Below, one piece after another: positions 12,701 through 53,900 of a stretch of 64,000 nucleotides of DNA. A program made the position numbers and the translations under genes. Source of the stretch: Octopus vulgaris (Eukaryota); assembly GCA_951406725.2 (NCBI GenBank), contig OX597816.1, positions 101,866,001-101,930,000 on the forward strand, read 5' to 3'. The notes under the pieces were generated by a model. It did no database searches, was not told the origin of the DNA, and saw only the letters and a list, made by a program, of their open reading frames with translations. Numbering within the stretch: position 1 is the first letter of the stretch; each line of letters opens with the position of its first letter.

Positions 12701-15700
12701 AAGTTGGCTTTGCTTTTCATTCTTTTGGGGTTGATAAAATAAAGTACCAGTCATGTATGGGGGTTGAAGTAATTAACTGCCCACCTCCCACAAATTTTCA
12801 GGCCTTGTGCTTATAGCAGAAAGGATTATTGTCATTATGATTATTTAGAGCAATGGATGATAAATTCATTAAAAAGCATTGGACAAAATATCTTATAGTA
12901 TTTGTTCCGACTCCTTACATCTTCAGTTTAAATCCCATAGGATCAATAAAATAGTCAAATATTAGGATCAATTTAATTAACACCTTCCTTCAAACTCATG
13001 ACCTTATGCCAATGTTAAAAATTATTGCTATCAGGAGCAGAGAAGTATTGAAGTGAAAGAAATGGTACAGTGCCAAATCAAGTGACTTTTGGTATTTAAT
13101 TATATCTCTTGATACAGAGCTTAAATCCTCAGATTAACTTTTAAATCCTTCAGTGTCAAAAAAATCTCGTGCCAGTCATTGACTATATTCCTTCCATATA
13201 ATTTTGTGGTTTCTTGCCAGAATTAAAATTTACAGATGGAACACAATTTTCAGCCCCAATTTTCATACATCAAGGGCAAGCAGTCTTTTTAACTCACATA
13301 GACTAAATATGGTAACAAAGCTAGACATGATCCTGTTTCCTTCATACTTCGAAAAGTGCACATTTATCTGAAACAATATCAGCATTCTGAGTTCAAATTC
13401 CACCAAAGTCGGCTTTGCTTTTCATTCTTTTGGGGTTGATAAAATAAAGTACCAGTCATGTATGGAGGTTGAAGTAATTAACTGCCCACCTCCCACAAAT
13501 TTTCAGGCCTTGTGCTTATAGCAGAAAGGATTATTGTCATTATGATTATTTAGAGCAATGGATGATAAATTCATTAAAAAGCATTGGACAAAATATCTTA
13601 TAGTATTTGTTCCGACTCCTTACATCTTCAGTTTAAATCCCATAGGATCAATTTAATTAACACCTTCCTTCAAACTCATGACCTTATGCCAATGTTAAAA
13701 ATTATTGCTATCAGGAGCAGAGAAGTAGTGAAGTGAAAGAAAGACCTAGGCTGCGTTCCCCCAACAGGTGCTCTCCGCCTTGGACGACCTGGCCCAAAAC
13801 CCAGGCTCATCAAGCTGTCTTTTCCAGACCACGCTGAGGCAACCGCATACCATCTGGCCTCAGTTAAAGCTGGGCGTGAAAATCCGACGACCCTCCGAAC
13901 ACGCCCAGGCTTACCATCCGATGTACGTCCGAAGCTACGTGTAGCGGCTTCCCTGAACCGGAACTCAGCTCTACAGGAAAGCTTCAGTCTTCGTGAAGAT
14001 GGACAAATCTGGAGATTTGTTAAGACGGGTGAAACGTGGAAGAGAGATAACAGCTGGTCTGAGTGCTCTCTACCCACAATGACTGACACTAAAAAAACTA
14101 CAGCAACTCAGGGAAACTAAACCTGAACAACCTGCCATCCTCTACACACCATCATAAACTGCAAGCAGGGTACAAATTGTTGTCCTTAAATGCTCGCAGT
14201 TTGTGCAACAAAATTCATTTGTTCAACGCCTACGTTGGAAGTATTGACCCTGACTTCATCACTGTCACGGAAACATGGGCGCATTCCTTACTCTGTGATG
14301 GGGTTTTCAACATCACTGGGTACAACCTCTTCCGCAAGGACCGCATTAACCGCCGTGGTGGTGGTGTGATGGTCTACGTTCGTTCAAATTTTTCAGTAAT
14401 TCCTTGTGCCGATTTGAACGAATCACAAGAAGAAGTTTTTTTCTGTGATGTACGTATGACCATGTCAACACTCCTGCTTGGTGTTGTTTATCGTCCCCCA
14501 AATTACCATCGGGACACACAGCTTTGCGATATCCTCCGAGCTGCTGCCAGGAAAACAGCCACTTATGTTTTCATTGCAGGCGATTTCAATCATCCTGAGA
14601 TCAATTGGGAAACCTTCCATTGGCCACAGAGTGCAAAAGTTTTTGTTGAGCTTGTACTGGACTCAAACTGGTCACAAGTAGCCACCTCTCCAACAAGAGG
14701 CGACAACACCTTGGACCTGCTCTTCACCACAACTCCTGAAGCGGTTATCAATTGCACTACGGAGGAACCTCTAGGTGACTCTGATCATGCTATGATCATC
14801 GCCAATCTGGCTCTTGCGGGCAACAAAAACCTGAACCATCTCCAAACTGCTTCCTTCGATTGGAAGAGAGCAGATTGGAACCTGTACCACACTGAACTAC
14901 AGCACCCAAACTGGCGTGAATTCTACAACTCTGGAGATGTGAATACTATACTCCAGAGTATCCTGGACTCAATATGGGCAGCATGTGCAGCATCAGTGCC
15001 ATGTAAACAGAAAAAGAAGAACCGCCCCAAAAGTGCAATTTGGGAAACTTCAGCGGTCCGACTTGCCAGGAAGGAACGTCGAACTGCTGAACGGGATTAC
15101 AAGTTGCATAAATCAGACACCAACAGGAAGAAGCGGAATAAATCTTCCAACCATCTCAAGCAAGTGACAAAAAAAGCAGTGCTTGAATTTGAACAGTGCA
15201 TAGCAGCCAATCCTGACAGCAAGGTTTTCTGGAAATATGTGCATTCGAAGCAGAGACCTCACTCTCCAGTGGGCCCTCTTCGCAACCCTCACACAAACCA
15301 GATCACTGACGACCCCAAGGAATGCGCAGAACTCATTGCCGAGTGCTATGCAAACATATTCACTGTTGAAAGTCAAAATGTACCATCTTCACCATCTCTA
15401 ACAGCAAATTCCATAACAACTATGGAATTTACACCTGCAATGCTGCGACGTCACCTTCAAAATAAGCGCAATTATGCCTCCCCTGGTCTTGATGGAGTTA
15501 CATACCTGCTTCTCAAACGTGGCAGGTACTTCCTTTTACACCAGCTCTCTACTTTCTTCCAGTACTGTCTCAACAATGGTGCTACTCCGGAACAGTGGAA
15601 AACTGCCAGTGTCATTCCTCTGTTCAAGAAGGGCGACCGCACATCACCTGTCAACTATCACTCAGTCAGTCTCACTAGCTGTATTGCAAAACTGATGGAA

Positions 15701-18700
15701 TCGTGTGTCAGAGAAACACTTTGGAACTTCTGGAGCTCACACAGTCTCATCCGACCCTCACAATATGGATTTGTCCCTAACTCCAGCTGCAGTGATCAGC
15801 TTGTCGAGTTCCTTGAGGACATTACTCAGATCATTGACAGTGGCTCATGGGTGGATGTTGTCTACCTCGACTTTGCTAAGGCTTTCAACTCTGTGCCACA
15901 CAAAAGGCTTATGGTGAAACTCTCTGCAATGGGTGTGAGGGATGACCTTTTTAACTGGTTGAAGTCCTTCATTCTCAACCGAAAGGAGGTAGTCACAGTT
16001 CTAGGACAGCATTCTACACCATATGAGATGTCATCGGGTGTACCACAGGGATCTGTCCTTGGTCCCCTCTTGTTTGTGGCATACATTAATGACATAGATG
16101 CAAATTTAAAGAATGCCACAGTATTAAAATATGCAGACGACATCAAGCTGTACCTTGAAATCAAGAGGACAGATCCTGTTGTCTACAGCTCTTTCCTGCA
16201 ATCAGACCTGGACACAATGCAGCAATGGATCACAGACTGGCAACTGAAACTGGCTGTGGACAAGTGTACCACCATGCATTTTGGGAGAAAAAACCCTGCG
16301 TCCACATACTCCCTCCACAACACTGATATCAAGAAATCCTCTTGCGAGCGTGACCTAGGCATCACTGTCAGCAGTGATTTGCGTTGGACAAAGCATATCT
16401 CTAAAATTGTCAAGAAGGCCGAGGGTGTCTTGGCATCACTCAGCAAGACTTTTGTTAGCCGCTCTCCAGCCATCTATTTAAAACTGTATACAGCTATGGT
16501 ACGACCACACTTGGAATTCGCATCATCAGTTTGGAACCCCTATCTTGCTCAGAACATTGACCTCCTGGAATCTGTTCAGAGACGTGCAACCAAACGCATA
16601 CCCTCCATCAGACACCTACCATATTCTGAGGGCCTTGTTTCCCTGGGTATGGATTCACTGAAGCTCCGGCGTCTGGCGACAGACTTGGTAAACACCCACA
16701 AAGTTGTCAACCACCTCACCAATAACAACACTGAACACCTTTTTGATCTCCATGTGTCTAACACACGTGGACATGCCTACAAAGTCAGAAAACAACACAG
16801 CTCCCATGACTTTCGGAAACATTTCTTCACACTCAGAGTTGCTGAAGCATGGAATAAACTGCCTGCATCAGTTGTTGACTGCCATGACACTGCATCCTTT
16901 AAGGCCCTCATGCTTTCCGAAATCCGTCGAAACTACACCTGATTATATATACACTTTCGATGAGCTGTAGTGCACCTGAGCACTGTACACAATGTTTATT
17001 ATTATTAAATGGTACAGTGCCAAATCAAGTGACTTTTGGTATTTAATTATATCTCTTGATACAGAGCTTAAATCCTCAGATTAACTTTTAAATCCTTCAG
17101 TGTCAAAAAAATCTCATGCCAGTCATTGACTATATTCCTTCCATATAATTTTGTGGTTTCTTGCCAGAATTAAAATTTACAGATGGAACACAATTTTCAG
17201 CCCCAATTTTCATACATCAAGGGCAAGCAGTCTTTTTAACTCATATAGACTAAATATGGTAACAAAGCTAGACATGATCCTGTTTCCTTCATACTTCGAA
17301 AAGTGCACATTTATCTGAAACAATATCAGCATTATTAAATGTCTTTAAAGCTAAACTTCATTCTTATTCTTTTCCCCAGTTGTATTGTCATGGCTCTCAA
17401 AATCATTTAGAAACAACTATTAAAGTGGCAAACTAGTAGAATTATTAGCATGCCAGACAAAATGTTTGGCAGCATTTCATTTATCTTTATTTTTTTAATT
17501 CAAATTCTGCCAGGGTCGACTTTGCCTTAATGGGGGGTGGGGGTGGAGTCAATGTAAGTAACTAGCCCTTTCCCTGCAAATTCCAGGCCTTGTGCCTATA
17601 GAAGAAAGGATTATTATTATTATTATTATTATTATTGTGCAACATTTGATAGTTTCAGGCAGATTTCTATTGCATCAACTGCTACACCCTTGTGCTGCTG
17701 AAAAGTGTGTAGCATTGTGTGTTCTTGCTCGTGTAAGGGGAGTACAGACTCTTCCTAGCACAGTATTGCATCAGTTTCTTTTGTTATGGGATTTGCCTTG
17801 AATTTCTTGTATTAATACTTGTATTGCATACTGTGTATGTCATGCAAGTCATGTTCTTCTGTTGGGTATCTGACTTGTAGAATACATGTTGTTGAGGTTG
17901 TTTTTATTGGACATTTACTGTATAAAGTGTGTCTTGTGTTTGTGGATTGTTTTATTTGAGTAAGCTATCAAATTGATATCTTCCATAGGATGTGGGCTGT
18001 TCCTAGCAGGGATATTTTTTGGATAGTGTGTAGTGTTGAGGGTGCCAGGTAAGACTTCTACATTTTTATTCATTTTTTTTTCTATCATACTCAGTGCTCC
18101 ATCTATTACTGGTACTGTTTTTACCTTTATGCCTCACATCCTGAATACTTCAGTTTCAAGATCTTTGTACTTTGACAGTTTCTCCACTTTGTTTTTGGAC
18201 AATATTTTGGTCAGAAGAGACTGCAATGTCTATCAGTAAGCAGGTATTTTTTTTTTCCAATCCTTGATTATTATGCCCACATGATTAGTTTCGATTTTTT
18301 TAGTTCGTTTGAATAGGCATATCCCAGATGATTGTGCTCTGGATATTGTCATGTACCTTGTTTGACATATGTTTATACCATTACTAGTTAATTTTTATGT
18401 TGTAGTGTTTGCACATTGTTCACTGAATATAACTACTTACTTGGTTATATTGCCCAGTGGATATAACTTTAGCAAAGGCAGCAAGCTGGCAGAATTGTTA
18501 GCGTGCCAGGCAAAATGCTTAGCGGTATTTCGTTTACCACTATGTTCTGAGTTAAAATTCTGTCGAGGTTGACTTTGCCTTTCATCCTTTTGGAGTCAAT
18601 AAATTAAGTACCAGTTAAATACTGGGGTCAATGTAATCGACTAGTTCCCTCCTGCCAAATTTCAGGCCTTGAGCTTTTAACAGAAAGGATCATTATTATT

Positions 18701-41800: not shown

Positions 41801-44800
41801 ATCAAAATATATATATATATTAATTCATCCTTTTATGTTTCAGTGGAATACCAGGCCAAATGTAATCAACTAGCCCCTCTCCACTCCAAAGAAATATCAG
41901 GTCTATCTTAAAAAGAATTACTAAAGCTAGTGAGCTGGTAGAATCATTAGCACACCAGACACAATGCTTAGTGGTATTTCATCTGTCTTTATGTTCTGAG
42001 TTCAAATTCTGTCAAGGTTGACTTTGCCTTTCACCCTTTCAAGGTTGCTGAAATAATGACCAGTTGAATAATGAGTTCAATGTAATTGACTAGAGCCCTC
42101 CGACCCAACTTTAGGCTTTGTGCCTATAATAGAAAGGGTTATTATCATTGTTAATAAGGCAAGCTGGAAAAATCATTAACATATAAAAAATACCTAGTGG
42201 CATTTCTTTCAGCTTTATGTTCTGAGTTCAAGTATTGTTGAGGTTGAGAGTTAACAGGTGTGATGGCAATGTGTAGCTATAAGTTGTAGAACATGCACTA
42301 CATTAGGATGTTCAGGCAAGTATCAGAGTTGATCATCATCATCAATGTTCCATGCAAGCTGTCACATTAACTTTCTTCCGGCTCACTAGAGAAGTCCTTA
42401 CATTATAGTCTGGACTATCTGAAGGACTATCCACACAAAAAGGATAACTCTCATGCTTGGTTTACAATAATACAAATGTGAGCCAAAAGACAATAAAGCT
42501 CATGATTGACAAACCCAACTGCACAGTAGCTTCAGTCAATTTCTATATCATCAATTGCTATCCAACAACTGAATTCCATCACACTCTACCAGGCAACTAG
42601 CAGAAGCCAATGTGCAAATGTCCAACATAATGCCTGTCCTAACATGTCATGCAAGCCATAACAACATCAACCATGTTTTTGTCAGCCTTTCTCTTAAGCC
42701 TACCCTCTGTAATAATCTCAGTTGTCAGAATGTGTGATGCTCACCTATAGCTGTAAGATTGCTGAGCTACACAATAATAAGTAGAGAGTGGTATGCAAAC
42801 ATTCAAAACACTACTGACCCAACAAGGCTACTTGGTTTCTGCTTGAGCCACCTCTTTATTAACAGGCATGATTATTCAAAATGCTATCTTATTTTCACAC
42901 ACATGCATGCATTCACATACACACCCCTACAATATTCACACTAGATTTACTTATGATACAAAATATGAAAGTTATTTATTGTGTAATCAAACCAACCAAG
43001 CACTTCATGCATGACATGCATCTCATAGAAAACATTTTTTTCAAGTGTCATACCTCTACAAGAGGTACTCATTTCTACAGCTGAGTGGACCAGTGCAATG
43101 TGAAGTGAAGTGTTTTGCTGAAGAACACAATGTGTTGCCTGGTCCAGGAATCGAAATCGTAATCTTACAATTGTGAGTCCAACACCCTAACCACTAAGCC
43201 ACACGTCTCCCAGGAAACCATATCAACCACTTAGTCACCACTTCCTGCAAACTTCCCATGCCAGCTCTTCTCATTATTTTTTAGTTTCTCATTATCCTGG
43301 TAAGAGATACCCAAGATTGAATGTAGTCAGAATTATTAGAACATTGAAAAATTATCTTGAATTCATTCCAACAGTTTGTGTGTTTAGCTGAAATATTACT
43401 GAGTTAAACTTGTAAACATCAAAGGTGATTGTTACCCCTCTACAGCAAGACACCTGTTTCTGTCTCTCTGTCATTATCTGACACAAAATCACCTCCTCCA
43501 ACGTCCCTTCCCCTCTCAAAGGTTCTTTGTCTTGCAAGTTACTTGGTGACTCTGCCAAAACTGGTGCCATATAAAAAGCATTTAGTCTACACTGTGAAGT
43601 GTTTAGCATTTGGAAGAGCATCCAGCTGTAAAAACTGCCAAAACTGACCTTGCCAGTGCTGGTGCCATGTAAAAAGCACTCAGTCCACTTTGCAGGGTGG
43701 TTGGTGTTAGGAAGGGCATTTAGCCATAAAAACGATGCCAAAACAGACACAGAAGTCTGGTGCAGTCTTCTGCCTGGCCAGTTCCTGTCAAACCGTCCAA
43801 TCCATGCCAGCATGGAAGGCGGATGTTAAACAATGATGATGTAAATTCATCTTAACTACAGTTTAGTAACTACTGTCTACCACCCTCTTCCATATTGGCA
43901 GATCCATTGTTTATTTTCTTTGTGGTGTCACGAGTTCCTACTCTCTTGATCTAATCATCACAGTCTTAGTTACCATTAATCATCACTTGTCATCACATTG
44001 TTCATTGAGCATGCATCACTGATTGTGACTGTGTCACTACTAATGCATACAGTTGTTTGGTCTTTGTACTTACATCTCTCCTTCCCTTTTAAAAAGAAGT
44101 ATAACAAAACAAAGCTAGTCCTGTTTATTCCTTCCCTACCCCTGAAGGGAAATAACAAAGTCACATTTTGGGAACGTGTCACATAAAAATCTGGAAGATA
44201 TCCTTGTTGTCAGAGATTAGAAAGGTATTGTAATTAAGACCATATTTTCATTAATATGCATCCCATCAAAAACTACACCTTCCTTACACTGGACATTTTT
44301 CCCCACTTATTTTCTTTCTCTACGTAACTCTACCTTAAAACATAATCCTAACCATACAACAAAACACTAACATTAACCATAGATCAAATGTTTTTTTGAA
44401 GGAGTATAATCTGTTTAATATTATCAATTCATGAAAAAAAAAAAAAATGTAAATCAAAAATGAAAAAGTTGCAGCTGGTTGTTTACTCCAAAATAGATAT
44501 TAAGACATAGCAAAAAATTTGTAAAAAAATGGAATTTTAAAATTTATATATTTTTCGGAATCATGAAGAAATATTCTCTGAAGAATAGAAAAAATAGAAG
44601 ATAGAAATGTCAGATAGGTGGGATTCATACTGCATAACTCTGTAAATATATGTTGTTTAAATTATATATATACACATATGTGCTGAGTGGTTAAGAATAC
44701 TTCATAACCACATGTTTTCAGGTTTGTTCTATAACACCTTTATTAACAATATTTAGTTAACACAATAAACTAGAATTTCTTTGTATCTAAGACCATTCAC

Positions 44801-47800: not shown

Positions 47801-50800
47801 AATCAAAAATAAACAAAAATTAAAATCACTACATAAAAATCTAATAATAGGAGAATGGAATTGATGAAAAATGAATATAATATGTGCATTCATAGCTATA
47901 GCCTAAGAAGGAGTGAACACTTGATATTTCATTATAAATGAAATGTAAATATTTTCAAAGACTCTTTCACTATTCTCTATAGAAATTATATAAACTTTCA
48001 TAATCAATTTCACTGGCAACTACATAATATTTATCATTATCAGTATAATATTTATGTTTTGGTTAGCATGAAATATTATGCAAATATTAAATTGGATGAT
48101 CAACTTCTTAAGTATTCTTCGAATATACTTAATGTAACTTTGATAGTTGTAGTTACAAAGTACTTTTTTTTATAATCTAAAATTAAATTTTGGGTTTTTT
48201 GAGTCATTTTAAAGAAAATTCTTGTAAAAATTATAAAAGTATAAGTAGAAATAGTGGTTCTGGTATTGAAAATGATCAAAGACTTCTAAGATGTCAGCCA
48301 GATAGAATGAATGCACATACAGATGAACACATGAAGCACGCATCTCACCTTGAAAGATGACAAGATTGTAATCAACTAATGAATTAGATAAAGGAAACAA
48401 AAAAATCAAAATTATAACAAAAAAAAAACAAAACAAAAAGAGGTTCTACCTAATTGCTGTGAAAAAATATTTAAGCAATAACAACAAACAAAATGAAAAG
48501 ACAATTAATTCAAACTCAATGAAATAAATAACATCAACAAGAACACCAACAATCCAGGTTCTGATACCTTTTGATTTTAATAGATTAGGAAAAGTTTTTA
48601 AGATGTTTGCAATAAAATGTTTCATTGTGAAAACCAAACTATGATATTTAATTTAAAACAAATATATAAAGTTATTTCTAATGTTTAATGTAGTACAACA
48701 TCAATTAGATTAATAAATTAAATAATAACAACAAGCTTTTTAATGTAAAACTAAAAAATGTTAATTAATAAGAAAGTCTCTAAATTGCCTTAGACCACAG
48801 ACGGCCATACAAATTAATAAACAAGGCTACTGGTAAGATGATCAACAGCTCATAACTTACAAATGACACTGCACCGTGTTTCTGGCAAAGATACTTAAAA
48901 TTCTTAGTTCAATCTAGTAGCTGTTTTATAGTATCTACTACTTAGTAGATCTTATAGAACAACAATGAGCATTGGAAACTAATATTTATTAGATTCTATT
49001 GTTTCAACCAATATTATTATCTAAGACACTAACATTTAGAAAGAGAAAAATTACGTTGCATACTGCTGAGTAAGTGAATTAATTCTATATGAGAATAGAA
49101 TAATTTAGCCATGGTCTAAAATATTTGGAGTTAACTTGTGAGAATATGATGAATCTGATTCAAAGTACCCCAATTTCAAATGAGTTTGATTTCTTCAGCA
49201 CAGATGACATCAGAACCAAACATATTGTCTTTAGACTGTTTGTATAGTACCTGATATCTGTAGTTTTCTTTGTGAATACACACCACTGGTTGATTTATTC
49301 CAGTTATTGACTAATATACAAACAGTTTGATTGAGAGAATGATGAGTGCTTCTGGCTGTGCTAACATGACATACGACTCCAGTAGGAGTCATAAGTCATG
49401 GAAGTCATAAATTTCATCACTTCAATAATTAATAATTTAATTTGATTTACATTAATTTGTTTTAATTCTCTGCTTTTGACCACTTTAATCCCACTCTTAC
49501 TCTTTTTTTTTTGTGCAAAATATAGACAGGAGTTTTGTAGCAAGTTTGAATATTTGCATATTTTTATAGCTGGATATGCTTCCAACTGCTAATAAAGGCT
49601 AAGAATGATTTTCACCTTTATTAAAAAAGATTCGTACTTTATTAAACATTGTTAGGAAATACAAGACTAGAAATGCTTATTAGTTTGCCAGTATAGCTGT
49701 CTTTATCTTGTATCATCTCCCCAATGAGGCTTAACTTTTTGTGGCCTAATCATGCCTGGATTGCAGGTGTCTGAACATGCAATAATAAAATTGATTACAA
49801 TAACAATGTTTATAGCAACAATACAACAATAATTTGGAGTAAGAGGGTAACAACAAATACAAAATGAACTGAAGATTTAAAAGTAGTCATGAGAGGGAAT
49901 GAGGGAATGATTATGAGGATGAATTTAATTGATGACTTTGAACTTGCTTGAAGATAGTTAACTAATTGGACCAGCTCTACATCTTTAAAACTATAGCCAA
50001 CAAAGATCTCTTTAATTAACAGTTCTGAATCATTAAATGTGAAAGATGGTTTGCATAAGGTAATGTGTAAACATAAAAACTAGACCTGTCCCTTGATAAT
50101 ATTAGTAATTTTAAAAAGAGTTCATTAAAAGCATATTACAAGCTTTCCTTTTCCCAAGAAAGCAATATAAAAAGCATAAATAATGTAGAGTTTTGTTTTT
50201 CTCAAGACAAAAGAGAAATAATATTGTCATTTGTAAAGATCACCGCAAAACTATTCTTTATATGGTATAAACTTCAATATTGTGAGATTTATGTATGCTG
50301 AAATTTTAAAACCATTACAGCTAATTTAAAGCACTGCCATAGAACTAGCAACTTCTATTGCTGCCATTCTCTTTAAATGGATCATTTATAGCTATTTTTT
50401 TTAAAAAAAGATAAAGAATAATTCAAGTCCATTTGTAATAAATGTCCTTATCAGACTCCATAGCATAATACCGAATATTTTACATCAAACATTGAGAAAA
50501 ACTGATACAAACTGGGACACCTGAAACATTATAAAAACAATTTAATACAGTTCTATATTTAAGAGATGAGGAACTATGTACATTATTTACATCATTTACA
50601 TTTGATGGATATTTGTCCTCATCCTGTTTGTTGTTAACACGTTTCAGCTGATATACCTCCAGCCTTCATTAGGTGTCTTGGGGAAATTTCGAACCTGGGT
50701 TCTCATTCCTAGGGTATTTTGAATGTTGTTGTTGTTGTTATTATTATTATTATTATTATTATTGTTGTTGTTATTGTTCAGGTCACTGCCTGGAATCGAA

Positions 50801-50863
50801 TTCGGAATCTTGAGGCTACTAACCCCAAGATTCCGAGTTTGATTCCAGGCAGTGACCTGAATA

Positions 50864-50907
<44 letters not shown>

Positions 50908-53900
50908 AATAATAAGAACAACAACATTGAAAATACCTTAGGAATGGGAAGCCAGGTTCGAAATTTCCCCAAGACACCTGATGAAGGCTGGAGGATATAT
51001 CAGCCGAAACGTTGTGTTAACAACAAACAAGATGAGGACAAATATCCGTCAAATGTAAATAATGTAAATAAAAACAATTTAATTCTTCACTGAAATCTTC
51101 TACTATAAAGTATAGCTAAAAAGAACAAGGTTAAATTGTTTATAGCTATATTAACAAAATCAAAATATTTCCTTCTAAAACAATACATTATGTATAACAA
51201 ACATATGGATTATAAATCTAAACAGGAAGGACAAAGTATCTTACTTTGTGTTTCTGCAGACTAACTTCATATAATTCCTGTCGAGTTTTGTTCAGATCTT
51301 CTTTGTCTTTGAGAATATGTTTCTGCAGTTCTTGTATCTGGTAAAGGTGAGTCAATTGAACACTGCTAACTAATATGTCAACATATAACTTGTGTTATAT
51401 GCAACATATAACACATTATACACACATTGAATATAATCTGCTATTTATGCAATGTAAACAAACGTATTGATAATATCAAAAATAATAAGCATGAAAAACA
51501 TTTTAAAAAATAATTTATATCAAAGTCAATAAAAATTCTCTTCACTTTGTCATTTTTATACACATACCACATAACAATAGAGCAATCATGTACGTTTATG
51601 GTGAAGTGTTTTGAGTCCATATACAAGTAGGTAATGATATAATCAGATTCTTGAAACTTCACTACTACTGAAATACATGGACATGCTTACATACATTGCC
51701 CTGAGGCACAACTCATAGTCTGTAATAAGGAATGAAATTATGACTGTGTGGTTAGTGACCCAGTATACTTAAGTCTCACTACCACTAAGCTTCATGTAGA
51801 TTTGATGAAACAACTAATTTATAAAACAAAGAATATTACTATTTCAATGCTTAACAACAACTGATAATGTAGGTGTGTAAAATAAAATCAGGTTCTAAGA
51901 TGCTACTACAGACCATAAGTTCAGATCTAGTAACTGTCATTGTAGTGTATTGCTAAACAAAAGACTTAACATTGCCAGTTTCATTTACCTATCAGGAAAT
52001 GTACAAGTTGTTTATTAGAAAAACAGCCTCTCCTAAATAAACTATCCTGCTCATGGAAAAATGAAAGTAAAACAGTAGGTGTATAGACATAATTATATAC
52101 TGATTAGATTACTAAGGCAGAAGTATTATACACAAATATGTACCTCATTTCGTTTTTCTTGCAGATTCTGGGTAAGGCCTTTAATTAACTTGTTCTTTTT
52201 GAGGCCATTAGTTTTTTCAGTCTCTAATTCACTTTCTACTTTCTTCAATTGTTGTTCTAGGAGCTAACAAAGAAAGAGAAAAAGATATTTAGAATATAAT
52301 ACTAGACTCAAAAAATATCAATAATTCAAAAAGATTAATTTAAATGTACTTGTATCAAAATTATTGCAAAATATATGAATTTGTTTGTTGCATTGACGAA
52401 TGAATGCAAGAAAGTAGATCAGTGTATTGGAAGACAAAATAATGTTGATAGAAAAAGAAAATCAGTTTGTATTCCAACTTTAAAAAGCCTTATCATGAAT
52501 GCAATATGAGAAGGAATGGCAATAACCAGAGCTTAATAACTGTTCTTGCTTTGAACTTAGTGAGTGTTTACAACTCAAAGTATAATTGTCATAAAGACAA
52601 TCATATGAGTCACATTTTTATGTACCTTCTAATAAACATAACAGAAATAAAGATATAATTAAAAAATGAAAATAAAATAAAAAAACATTGACTTACAGCT
52701 ACAGAGTCTCCCTTTTCATTCATAGATGTATTCAGCTGCTGAATCTCTGACTCCATCTTCTTGATGTTTTCTTGTTTGTCATCTATCATATCCTGAATAG
52801 AGAACATGTATTATATTTACAGTGTTCTTTCTTCGAATAGTACACAAATGTAAATGCATGTGCTTATAATGGTCTTACTAGCAGAAATATATACAGTCAT
52901 GGTCAAAAGTTGGGAACATAGGTCTGAAAATTAGAATTTTTATTTTAAATGCCTGAAGTTATATTTAATTTGCAATATATTATTACTTGGCCAAAAAGTT
53001 TGGAACATTGGTTTGAAAAATGGAATTTTTATATTAAATGCCCACCAAAGTCATATTTGAATCAAATTGTACTTGGTCATAACAATTTGAATTTTTTAAA
53101 AAAATGTTCCAAACTTTTGGCTACAACTGTGTGTGTGTGTATACATATATATATATATACACACACACACATACATGGTCTGATCAATAAGTATCTGGAC
53201 TGTTGCCATAGTAATGAAGCTAAAGCACAGAGAGTGAAGCCACTTGGCACAGATTGACCCTGAACTCTGCCGTGCATGCACACTAAGTTTTAATGTTCTA
53301 GTTCACATCCACTGTTTACAGTAGTGCTTGGAAGGAAGGTGTATAGTGTGTGATCATCGTATTGACCATGACAGAAAGTCGAGCAGAGAATCTGCATCAA
53401 ATTTTGCCAAAAGCTCAGCGATACCTGCTCAGAGGCCTACAAAGTTTCAAACACTTTTCATCTTTCTCAACACAGTCAAGGAAATCTTGTGCAACTGAAA
53501 CCTAAGTCTTTTTGGTCAGCTGAAAGCAGTTTTTTTGGCACAAACTTGGCAGGCACACATCTTATACCCCAATCTCCAGTGATAATGGACTGAACTGAAC
53601 CACAACTAATCTGTACATCTGCTAACTCATGGATAGTGATTCAACGATTTTCCCTCACAGCTGCATGCACATCTGCGTTGTTTTTCCCAGTTTTGCTGGT
53701 TGCAGGTCTCCCAAAACATTCATCAATATTGACATATTTTCAGTCATCTTGGAAACATCTGAACCACTTGTACACTTGTGTGCGGCTCATACACTCCTCT
53801 CCATACACTTTCTGCAATTTTGCATAGGCCTCTGAGCAGGTATCTCCATGAAAACTTTCTCTGTCATGGTCAATGTGATGATCACATGCTACACACCTTC

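Follow-up and report, generated by a model that had tools for sequence, protein, structure and literature searches.

The window analysed here is a 64-kb stretch of the Octopus vulgaris genome (contig OX597816.1, positions 101,866,001 to 101,930,000, forward strand), and all coordinates are given in window numbering. It contains an intronic inverted repeat with a small hammerhead ribozyme, which an earlier note on this DNA had presented as a palindromic mobile element. We consider it fairly probable that the locus is a single old insertion made of two 5'-clipped copies of one repeat unit, likely the pseudo-long terminal repeat (pLTR) plus tail of a Penelope-like element (PLE), with a tRNA-like head that would serve as an internal RNA polymerase III (Pol III) promoter. 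Published work is cited by PMC number. The hallmarks of PLEs include an inverted 5'-truncated copy and a tail of 30-40 bp at one end (PMC8557442), and the PLEs of Adineta show head-to-head pLTRs, palindromic junctions, a 31-bp tail and a target-site duplication (TSD) of 8-10 bp (PMC3846280). Judged from the sequence, the locus agrees with these published marks in its inverted copy, in the tail on one side only, in its palindromic junction and in the duplicated target, and for this reason we read the palindrome as an insertion product and not as the element itself: what the note took for a palindromic element would be one insertion event. Its proposal that a Penelope-type reverse transcriptase (RT) mobilised the sequence agrees with all four features.

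The insertion lies at 50547-51067 and is bounded by 16-bp exact direct repeats (50531-50546 and 51068-51083), for which the chance is about 1e-5 over 60x60 offsets; the same 16-mer flanks the insertion on both sides in AT-rich DNA. Between them, two 5'-clipped copies of one high-copy unit stand head to head and overlap at an anticodon hairpin, and each unit runs from a tRNA-like head through a trinucleotide spacer to a minimal hammerhead. The inverted repeat of the earlier note is real, its arms aligning with 12 substitutions and 2 indels over about 180 non-microsatellite columns, and so are the tRNA-like 3' half, the (GAT)n spacer and the second motif listed below. The limits first given, 50583..51071, had the wrong extent, missing a 36-nt tail and the 16-bp repeat. 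The left arm is 36 nt longer than the right arm at its 3' end, and this tail is on the left arm only. Both arms include the 3 nt at 50813-50815, of which one is mutated. Primer-template-like letters are common to insertion end and target, 4 nt on the right, which extend the right-arm match to 51071, and 1-2 nt on the left; the top-strand nick would fall within AT^T. The right junction is also present in run X14, which carries another organism label and has flanks 3-4% divergent, so the insertion predates the split of the two organisms. Besides 50547-51067, no further copy of the element was seen in the window. The features are listed below, where family B is a related sister family, L004 is a DNA copy of it, and P0007 is an Octopus bimaculoides protein entry of the present family.

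50531..50546, no strand: left copy of the exact 16-bp direct repeat, likely TSD (repeat comparison)
50547..50815, minus: left arm, 5'-clipped family unit from head position +39 to the tail end (arm alignment; family loose ends 50543-50548)
50547..50582, minus: 36-nt tail, on this arm only, of Penelope type (30-40 bp), homologous to the tail of L004
50636..50677, minus: broken left-arm hammerhead (arm comparison; missed by the strict descriptor)
50724..50778, minus: (AAT/AAC)n spacer of the left arm, approximate limits (sequence)
50813..50825, plus: head-to-head junction, a 3-bp stem and 7-nt loop that equal the anticodon hairpin of the tRNA-like head (loop = head positions 32-38)
50813..51067, plus: right arm, 5'-clipped family unit from head position +29/+30 to a tail-less end (family loose ends 51066, 51071)
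50813..50857, plus: 3' part of the tRNA-like head with B-box-like motif (A box absent at the locus)
50860..50925, plus: (GAT/AAT/AAC)n spacer of the right arm, approximate limits (sequence)
50944..51071, plus: open frame from an ATG through the hammerhead towards the tail, likely start of the PLE open reading frame (ORF); same frame in P0007 and family B
50955..50963, plus: second GTTCGA motif (GGTTCGAAA), 5' of the hammerhead, also kept in family B
50973..51018, plus: intact minimal type I hammerhead, predicted cut after 51013
51068..51083, no strand: right copy of the 16-bp direct repeat (repeat comparison)
51245..51340, minus: host exon before the intron, centrosomin/myomegalin-like gene (next exon 46385-46287)

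The right-arm hammerhead consists of a 5-bp stem I, CUGAUGA, an extra A, a stem II of 5-6 bp and GAAA, with stem III replaced by a palindromic ACGU. Its core is intact (C3-U4-G5-A6-N7-G8-A9, G12-A13-A14-A15.1 and U16.1-H17), and the left arm fails at it, with G5 changed to A, a loss of 3 nt at the stem III/cut site and a G-U at 10.1-11.1. A strict minimal-hammerhead descriptor, built after the motif had been seen and on the features in PMC4209133, matched once in the window, in the right arm, and never in 300 simulated 64-kb sequences sharing the window's dinucleotide make-up. The complete minimal type I motif and its predicted cut site agree with the earlier note, which had spoken of hammerheads in the plural; only the one in the right arm is intact. 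Rfam, the search that the note had suggested, gave no hammerhead match at the locus, a miss that we attribute to the absent stem III.

Minimal PLE hammerheads are marked by an extra nucleotide between 9 and 10.1, by G10.1-C11.1 and by a palindromic 15.2-16.2 (PMC4209133). The locus shares all of these with the metazoan PLE hammerheads described there, together with the core, the lack of a stem III loop and the 5-bp stem I, in agreement with the Penelope type claimed for it. Its stem II is 5-6 bp long compared with 7-8, and cephalopods are not named in the accessible part of that paper. PLEs are reported to contain two hammerheads on opposite strands at a distance of 100-700 bp (PMC4209133), and the pair at this locus is likewise on opposite strands. 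Such minimal hammerheads were inactive when monomeric and only weakly active when dimeric (PMC4209133), and in the sole PLE reconstituted in vitro the hammerhead was protein-assisted and dispensable for insertion (PMC11167929). For the hammerhead of the unit, the prediction is that cleavage needs either a dimer or an assisting protein; the dimer fold can be drawn at -20.7 kcal/mol, and the lowest-energy dimer is a different one at -28.6. When the whole insertion is folded, 41 of 46 plus-strand hammerhead bases pair with the other arm, and the minus-strand RNA has 202 predicted pairs. With no A box, and with a read-through RNA predicted to enclose the two hammerheads in a hairpin of about 200 bp, this locus is likely inert as a mobile element. 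A microRNA (miRNA) precursor was rejected as an explanation of the hairpin, as the Rfam miRNA matches merely reflect its length.

Among the rows listed, beyond which there are 32 more, the majority letters of the family contigs equal the right-arm hammerhead except in loop 2. N7 is the only difference in the first core strand between the right-arm hammerhead and L004. In the 4 sequences compared, all stem II positions pair (100%), and both sides have changed at one pair, which is U-A in this family and C-G in family B; stem I has only 3 bp in family B. A gapped pattern of the hammerhead core found three unrelated animal-like contigs (L001-L003) with a similar core; none of them has flanks of this family, and they were left out of the covariation count. 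In L002 a decayed frame lies 5' of the core, which we take to resemble the endonuclease end of a PLE. Exact DNA patterns of the family had no match in metagenome, viral or prokaryote collections.

Contigs from all four DNA-type runs pile up on the arms (19,804-43,314 aligned per run), and the summed contig depth is about 1e6 on the arms against about 50 in the flanks. It suggests a family copy number of 1e4-1e5, the summed depth itself not being a copy number, and agrees with the expectation that the sequence is of high copy and not single-copy. In 4/4 runs the family copies leave the arms into unrelated flanks at two places, 50543-50548 and 51066-51071, where the loose ends have a median of 245-255 letters and an agreement of about 0.4. 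The family 3' end is formed by hammerhead and Penelope-type tail, with the microsatellite internal, and differs from the simple-repeat, poly(A) or LINE-shared end of a tRNA-derived SINE. Family contigs are also present in two runs guessed to be RNA (X10, X17), a finding that tells nothing about the polymerase or the strand.

A further four runs, aligned to the palindrome centre, gave 28-29 extra letters 5' of 50814 with an A box (4/4). By tRNA numbering and the consensus of both boxes, the family head has A and B boxes at exact tRNA spacing, a loop at 32-38 and G-T at 53-54 (G53 = 50837 and T54 = 50838 if the head start is the equivalent of 50785). By eye, pairing is incomplete in both the T stem and the acceptor stem, which is also the case in the heads of short interspersed nuclear elements (SINEs). 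The family has a whole tRNA-like head, and the locus is two copies of it clipped at +29/+30 and +39. The "tRNA-like centre" of the earlier note is thus no feature of its own, being two clipped heads joined at the anticodon loop, and the Pol III-type head proposed there exists at family level (A and B boxes, tRNA spacing), the locus itself having no A box. Neither ARAGORN nor Rfam found a tRNA at the locus, and a functional tRNA was rejected. In 6 of 8 loose-end lines (at 50813 and 50814) a C stands immediately 5' of the head, unlike random AT-rich flanks, and this hints that the repeat continues 5' of the head. At 43144-43166, a few letters resemble the B-box portion of the head; they probably belong to another tRNA-derived repeat.

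The frame from ATG 50944 is open through hammerhead and tail, and it is alike in this family and in family B. A protein search with this frame gave 95 proteins, about two dozen from this family and the rest from family B; in P0050, another copy, a single frame spans both the head and the hammerhead. The B peptide as query added 11 longer proteins. After two unrelated repeat proteins (P0022, P0039) had been dropped, 81 of the 104 proteins examined were of B type; by eye, 39 of these have the tail, 26 are without it, 4 are partial and 12 unclassed. Two of the 39 tail-carrying B proteins, P0102 and P0110, run past the tail into one common ORF of about 80 residues. To us this read-through looks like the N-terminus of a Penelope/Poseidon protein. 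The layout of P0110, an inverted unit, then a direct unit and then the ORF, is the textbook PLE layout. At the DNA level, L004 is 74% identical to this family over 116 nt, in the hammerhead and beyond; its tail is homologous, an A box/B box head of its own is present, and it stands as a solo B unit whose first letters are those of the head.

Some copies were met in unexpected places. Units of family B occur in two bacterial metagenome-assembled genomes (L004, 3995-4346 on the minus strand, and L005, 3998-4910) with repeat-rich animal-like flanks, likely as host contamination, and the unit of L005 is split by an insert of about 570 bp. P0025 (XP_052825882.1), a dystrobrevin beta isoform model of O. 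bimaculoides, begins in frame with a piece of the repeat, which is either exonisation or an annotation error.

Because the frame is open from ATG 50944 and the sister-family frame enters a common ORF, the unit is probably no SINE of its own but part of a coding PLE, whose terminal repeat (pLTR and tail) it would be. In Adineta, the ORF begins within the repeat, and its first residues lie in pLTR and tail (PMC3846280). The free-standing non-coding SINE-type hybrid of the earlier note would accordingly give way to a piece of a longer element. A true non-autonomous SINE, in which a tRNA-derived head has become joined to pLTR and tail of a Penelope element, which has no coding master of its own and which a related PLE mobilises in trans, is an unlikely alternative, yet one with several facts behind it: the full head in the family, the very many short copies, L004 as a solo unit beginning at the head, no read-through seen for this family, and the existence of non-autonomous PLE derivatives with pLTRs such as MRC1 (PMC8557442). 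An internal TTTT terminator is also absent from both arms and the B unit, a weak point as these strands are T-poor. Against such a SINE stand the sister family, which has the same layout and reads into a common ORF, the frame, which is open to the tail end and alike in both families, and the C before the head, which hints at a repeat that extends further 5'.

Published PLE work suggests how the inverted pair could have arisen. In the anole element, both strands are cut and extended with ATT as the favoured cut, and the tail corresponds to the distance between two RT start sites (PMC11167929). In our proposal, a master copy would have been transcribed through head, spacer, hammerhead and tail, and a GIY-YIG/RT protein, as in that system, would have nicked both strands of the AT-rich target 16 nt apart. 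Each nick would prime a cDNA, the top-strand nick from the tail end and the bottom-strand nick from a second start site 36-40 nt inward, and the tail would be one-sided because the two cDNAs start at different sites. Both cDNAs would stop in the head and join via the 3-bp GGG/CCC of the anticodon stem, an annealing which would account for the observed junction with its loop in right-arm sense. The product is flanked by the 16-bp duplication, and its arms have since drifted by about 7%. The origin of Penelope inverted insertions is listed as open in the literature (PMC8557442, PMC3846280).

The manner in which the palindrome formed can be explained in other ways. A single cDNA folding back on itself could not, from the layout of the arms, yield both the loop orientation and the left-arm tail: since the loop lies in right-arm sense, the fold-back cDNA would be the right-arm one, and its copy would then be tail-less. 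Runs on the 52-nt centre listed no fold-back joints, and as this reference was probably too short, they are no evidence either way. The rival of the two-cDNA scheme, somewhat unlikely, is that one cDNA was made from an already palindromic master RNA or self-primed on an antisense template, which would leave the family identity unchanged. Palindromic junctions in Adineta have been read as self-priming (PMC3846280), the junction here is a natural hairpin, and on a palindromic template a single RT would suffice for both the tail and the loop. On the other hand, the 5' truncation must then meet by chance the second fixed end of the family (51066-51071), the RT must pass a duplex of about 200 bp, and the short primer-template matches at both ends look as if each end had been primed.

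More distant explanations treat the pair as a functional unit. A retrozyme-like element, which spreads via circular RNA from self-cleavage and whose pair is a two-hammerhead processing unit, is improbable. Family contigs contain joints from 51059 back to 51014, which is the first base past the predicted cut (2/4 runs, 2 contigs each), and from 51046 back to 50973, the start of stem I (depth 1523 in X2), possibly tandem units beginning at the hammerhead, and hammerhead-to-tail tandem units are common in family B. But these joints are few and flagged "between: not known", the two hammerheads lie on opposite strands so that no one RNA has both in sense, and one of them is broken. In metazoan non-LTR retrozymes the repeats run head to tail and the type I hammerheads are canonical (PMC7229834), whereas the locus is head to head with a minimal one. 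The two-ribozyme processing unit was rejected. A foldback element at the DNA level, that is, a miniature inverted-repeat transposable element (MITE) with the arms as terminal inverted repeats, would account for the long inverted repeat and the target duplication and is still far less credible: most family contigs leave one arm end into unrelated flanks, and the unit has a tRNA head, a microsatellite and a hammerhead. It was rejected for its unequal arms, one of them tailed, and for a centre that lies at the truncation point.

Several results weigh against our interpretation as a Penelope terminal repeat inserted by two joined cDNAs. The joining step draws on one junction, which cannot decide it, and no empty target site was seen among the 15 of 229 joints listed. 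Hammerhead covariation was no better than in shuffles (246/500 as high, with 4 sequences), and stem II pairs are often broken in family B copies, judged by peptides as a proxy. In comparison with the Adineta PLEs, the TSD of the locus has 16 bp instead of 8-10 bp (PMC3846280). The B read-through had no match in Pfam, Atlas, PDB or viral scans, and the supplement of PMC8557442 showed, in the places available, neither a match to the family motifs nor Poseidon N-termini. A common continuation past the tail was found in 0/5 tail-end proteins of this family (P0007, P0034, P0052, P0054, P0075), which says little given the rate of 2/39 in family B, and a search for longer proteins with P0001 gave none, being a weak search that also missed P0025. 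No RT or endonuclease tied to either family was seen among the 95 + 11 proteins. Of the autonomous Penelope/GIY-YIG element sharing the arm, for which the earlier note had advised to look, a candidate read-through ORF was found in family B, and the enzyme in neither family.

Set beside known elements, the insertion shares head-to-head 5'-truncated repeats, palindromic junction and target duplication with Adineta Pen2a, Pen2 and Pen3a (PMC3846280), and the one-sided tail of 30-40 bp with Penelope/Poseidon PLEs (PMC8557442, PMC3846280). An AT-rich target, a hammerhead in the repeat and an open frame starting there are further likenesses to this group including Poseidon_Ac (PMC11167929), and (AAT/AAC)n stretches occur both here and in Adineta (PMC3846280). 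The start of the repeat is different: the Adineta pLTR has a TATA/Inr-like promoter (PMC3846280), and here there is the tRNA-like A box/B box head; an ORF is also absent from the locus. In the SINE-like schistosome repeats Sm-alpha and Sj-alpha, which are short as well, a hammerhead likewise comes after a Pol III-type promoter; they are tandem with canonical hammerheads active in vitro, and the accessible part of their description contains no Penelope tail or inverted insertion (PMC6765202). Chlamydomonas MRC1 is short, forms pLTRs and shares its 3' ends with autonomous PLEs, like our unit, but belongs to another PLE clade, with no tRNA head in the accessible part of its description (PMC8557442). 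Palindrome, tail and hammerhead are known Penelope traits, and the locus as such is ordinary. The unusual part, as read from the letters of two related families, is a tRNA-like Pol III-type head that starts a Penelope terminal repeat; such a head was not found in the literature searched, outside of which were Repbase, Dfam and subscription papers.

Octopus tRNA-derived SINEs named OK, OR1 and OR2 were reportedly described by Ohshima and Okada in 1994. They share with our family the tRNA-derived head, the octopus host and the high copy number, and in the literature searched we found no hammerhead or Penelope link for them. As the likeness is one of description and not of sequence, our head may be a known one, listed as one of these SINEs or as an entry of Repbase/Dfam. 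OR2 is a CORE SINE (PMC4758252), and about 40% of octopus repeats are SINEs by annotation (PMC8967140). If the head works, it would allow SINE-like copying of the repeat and blur the line between SINE and autonomous element, and some annotated octopus SINEs may then be Penelope-driven. Only tentatively we suggest an octopus Penelope lineage with a tRNA-derived Pol III promoter in its terminal repeat, from which two transcripts would arise, one coding and the other a short product of Pol III. The short RNA would then hold all cis signals (hammerhead and two RT start sites), so that the retrotransposon would be its own SINE and would account for part of the octopus "SINE" burst, and the anticodon-hairpin junction would be the footprint of a dimeric RT whose two nick-primed cDNAs were joined by 3-bp annealing. 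With its two fixed ends, its exact target repeat and an overlap of 3 nt in a natural hairpin, the anatomy allows models of Penelope inverted insertion to be tested by counting.

The intronic position given in the earlier note was right: the insertion lies between exons 51340-51245 and 46385-46287 of a minus-strand gene. This host gene (62139-2, minus strand) has about 30 exons matching XP_014774428, annotated as thyroid receptor-interacting protein 11-like, and is 97% identical to an O. bimaculoides protein. It is more likely a relative of centrosomin/myomegalin, because Cnn_1N and CDK5RAP2 coiled-coil domains are present. Transcription of this minus-strand gene places the broken hammerhead (50636-50677) in sense and the intact one (50973-51018) in antisense within the pre-mRNA; this is one case, and the arrangement could be chance. 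With about 200 predicted pairs, the hairpin in the host pre-mRNA is likely a substrate of adenosine-to-inosine editing. Elsewhere, a long intron of the same gene contains a 949-codon open frame (14093-16942, plus strand), which looks like an endonuclease-RT non-LTR retrotransposon and by eye is CR1/L2-like.

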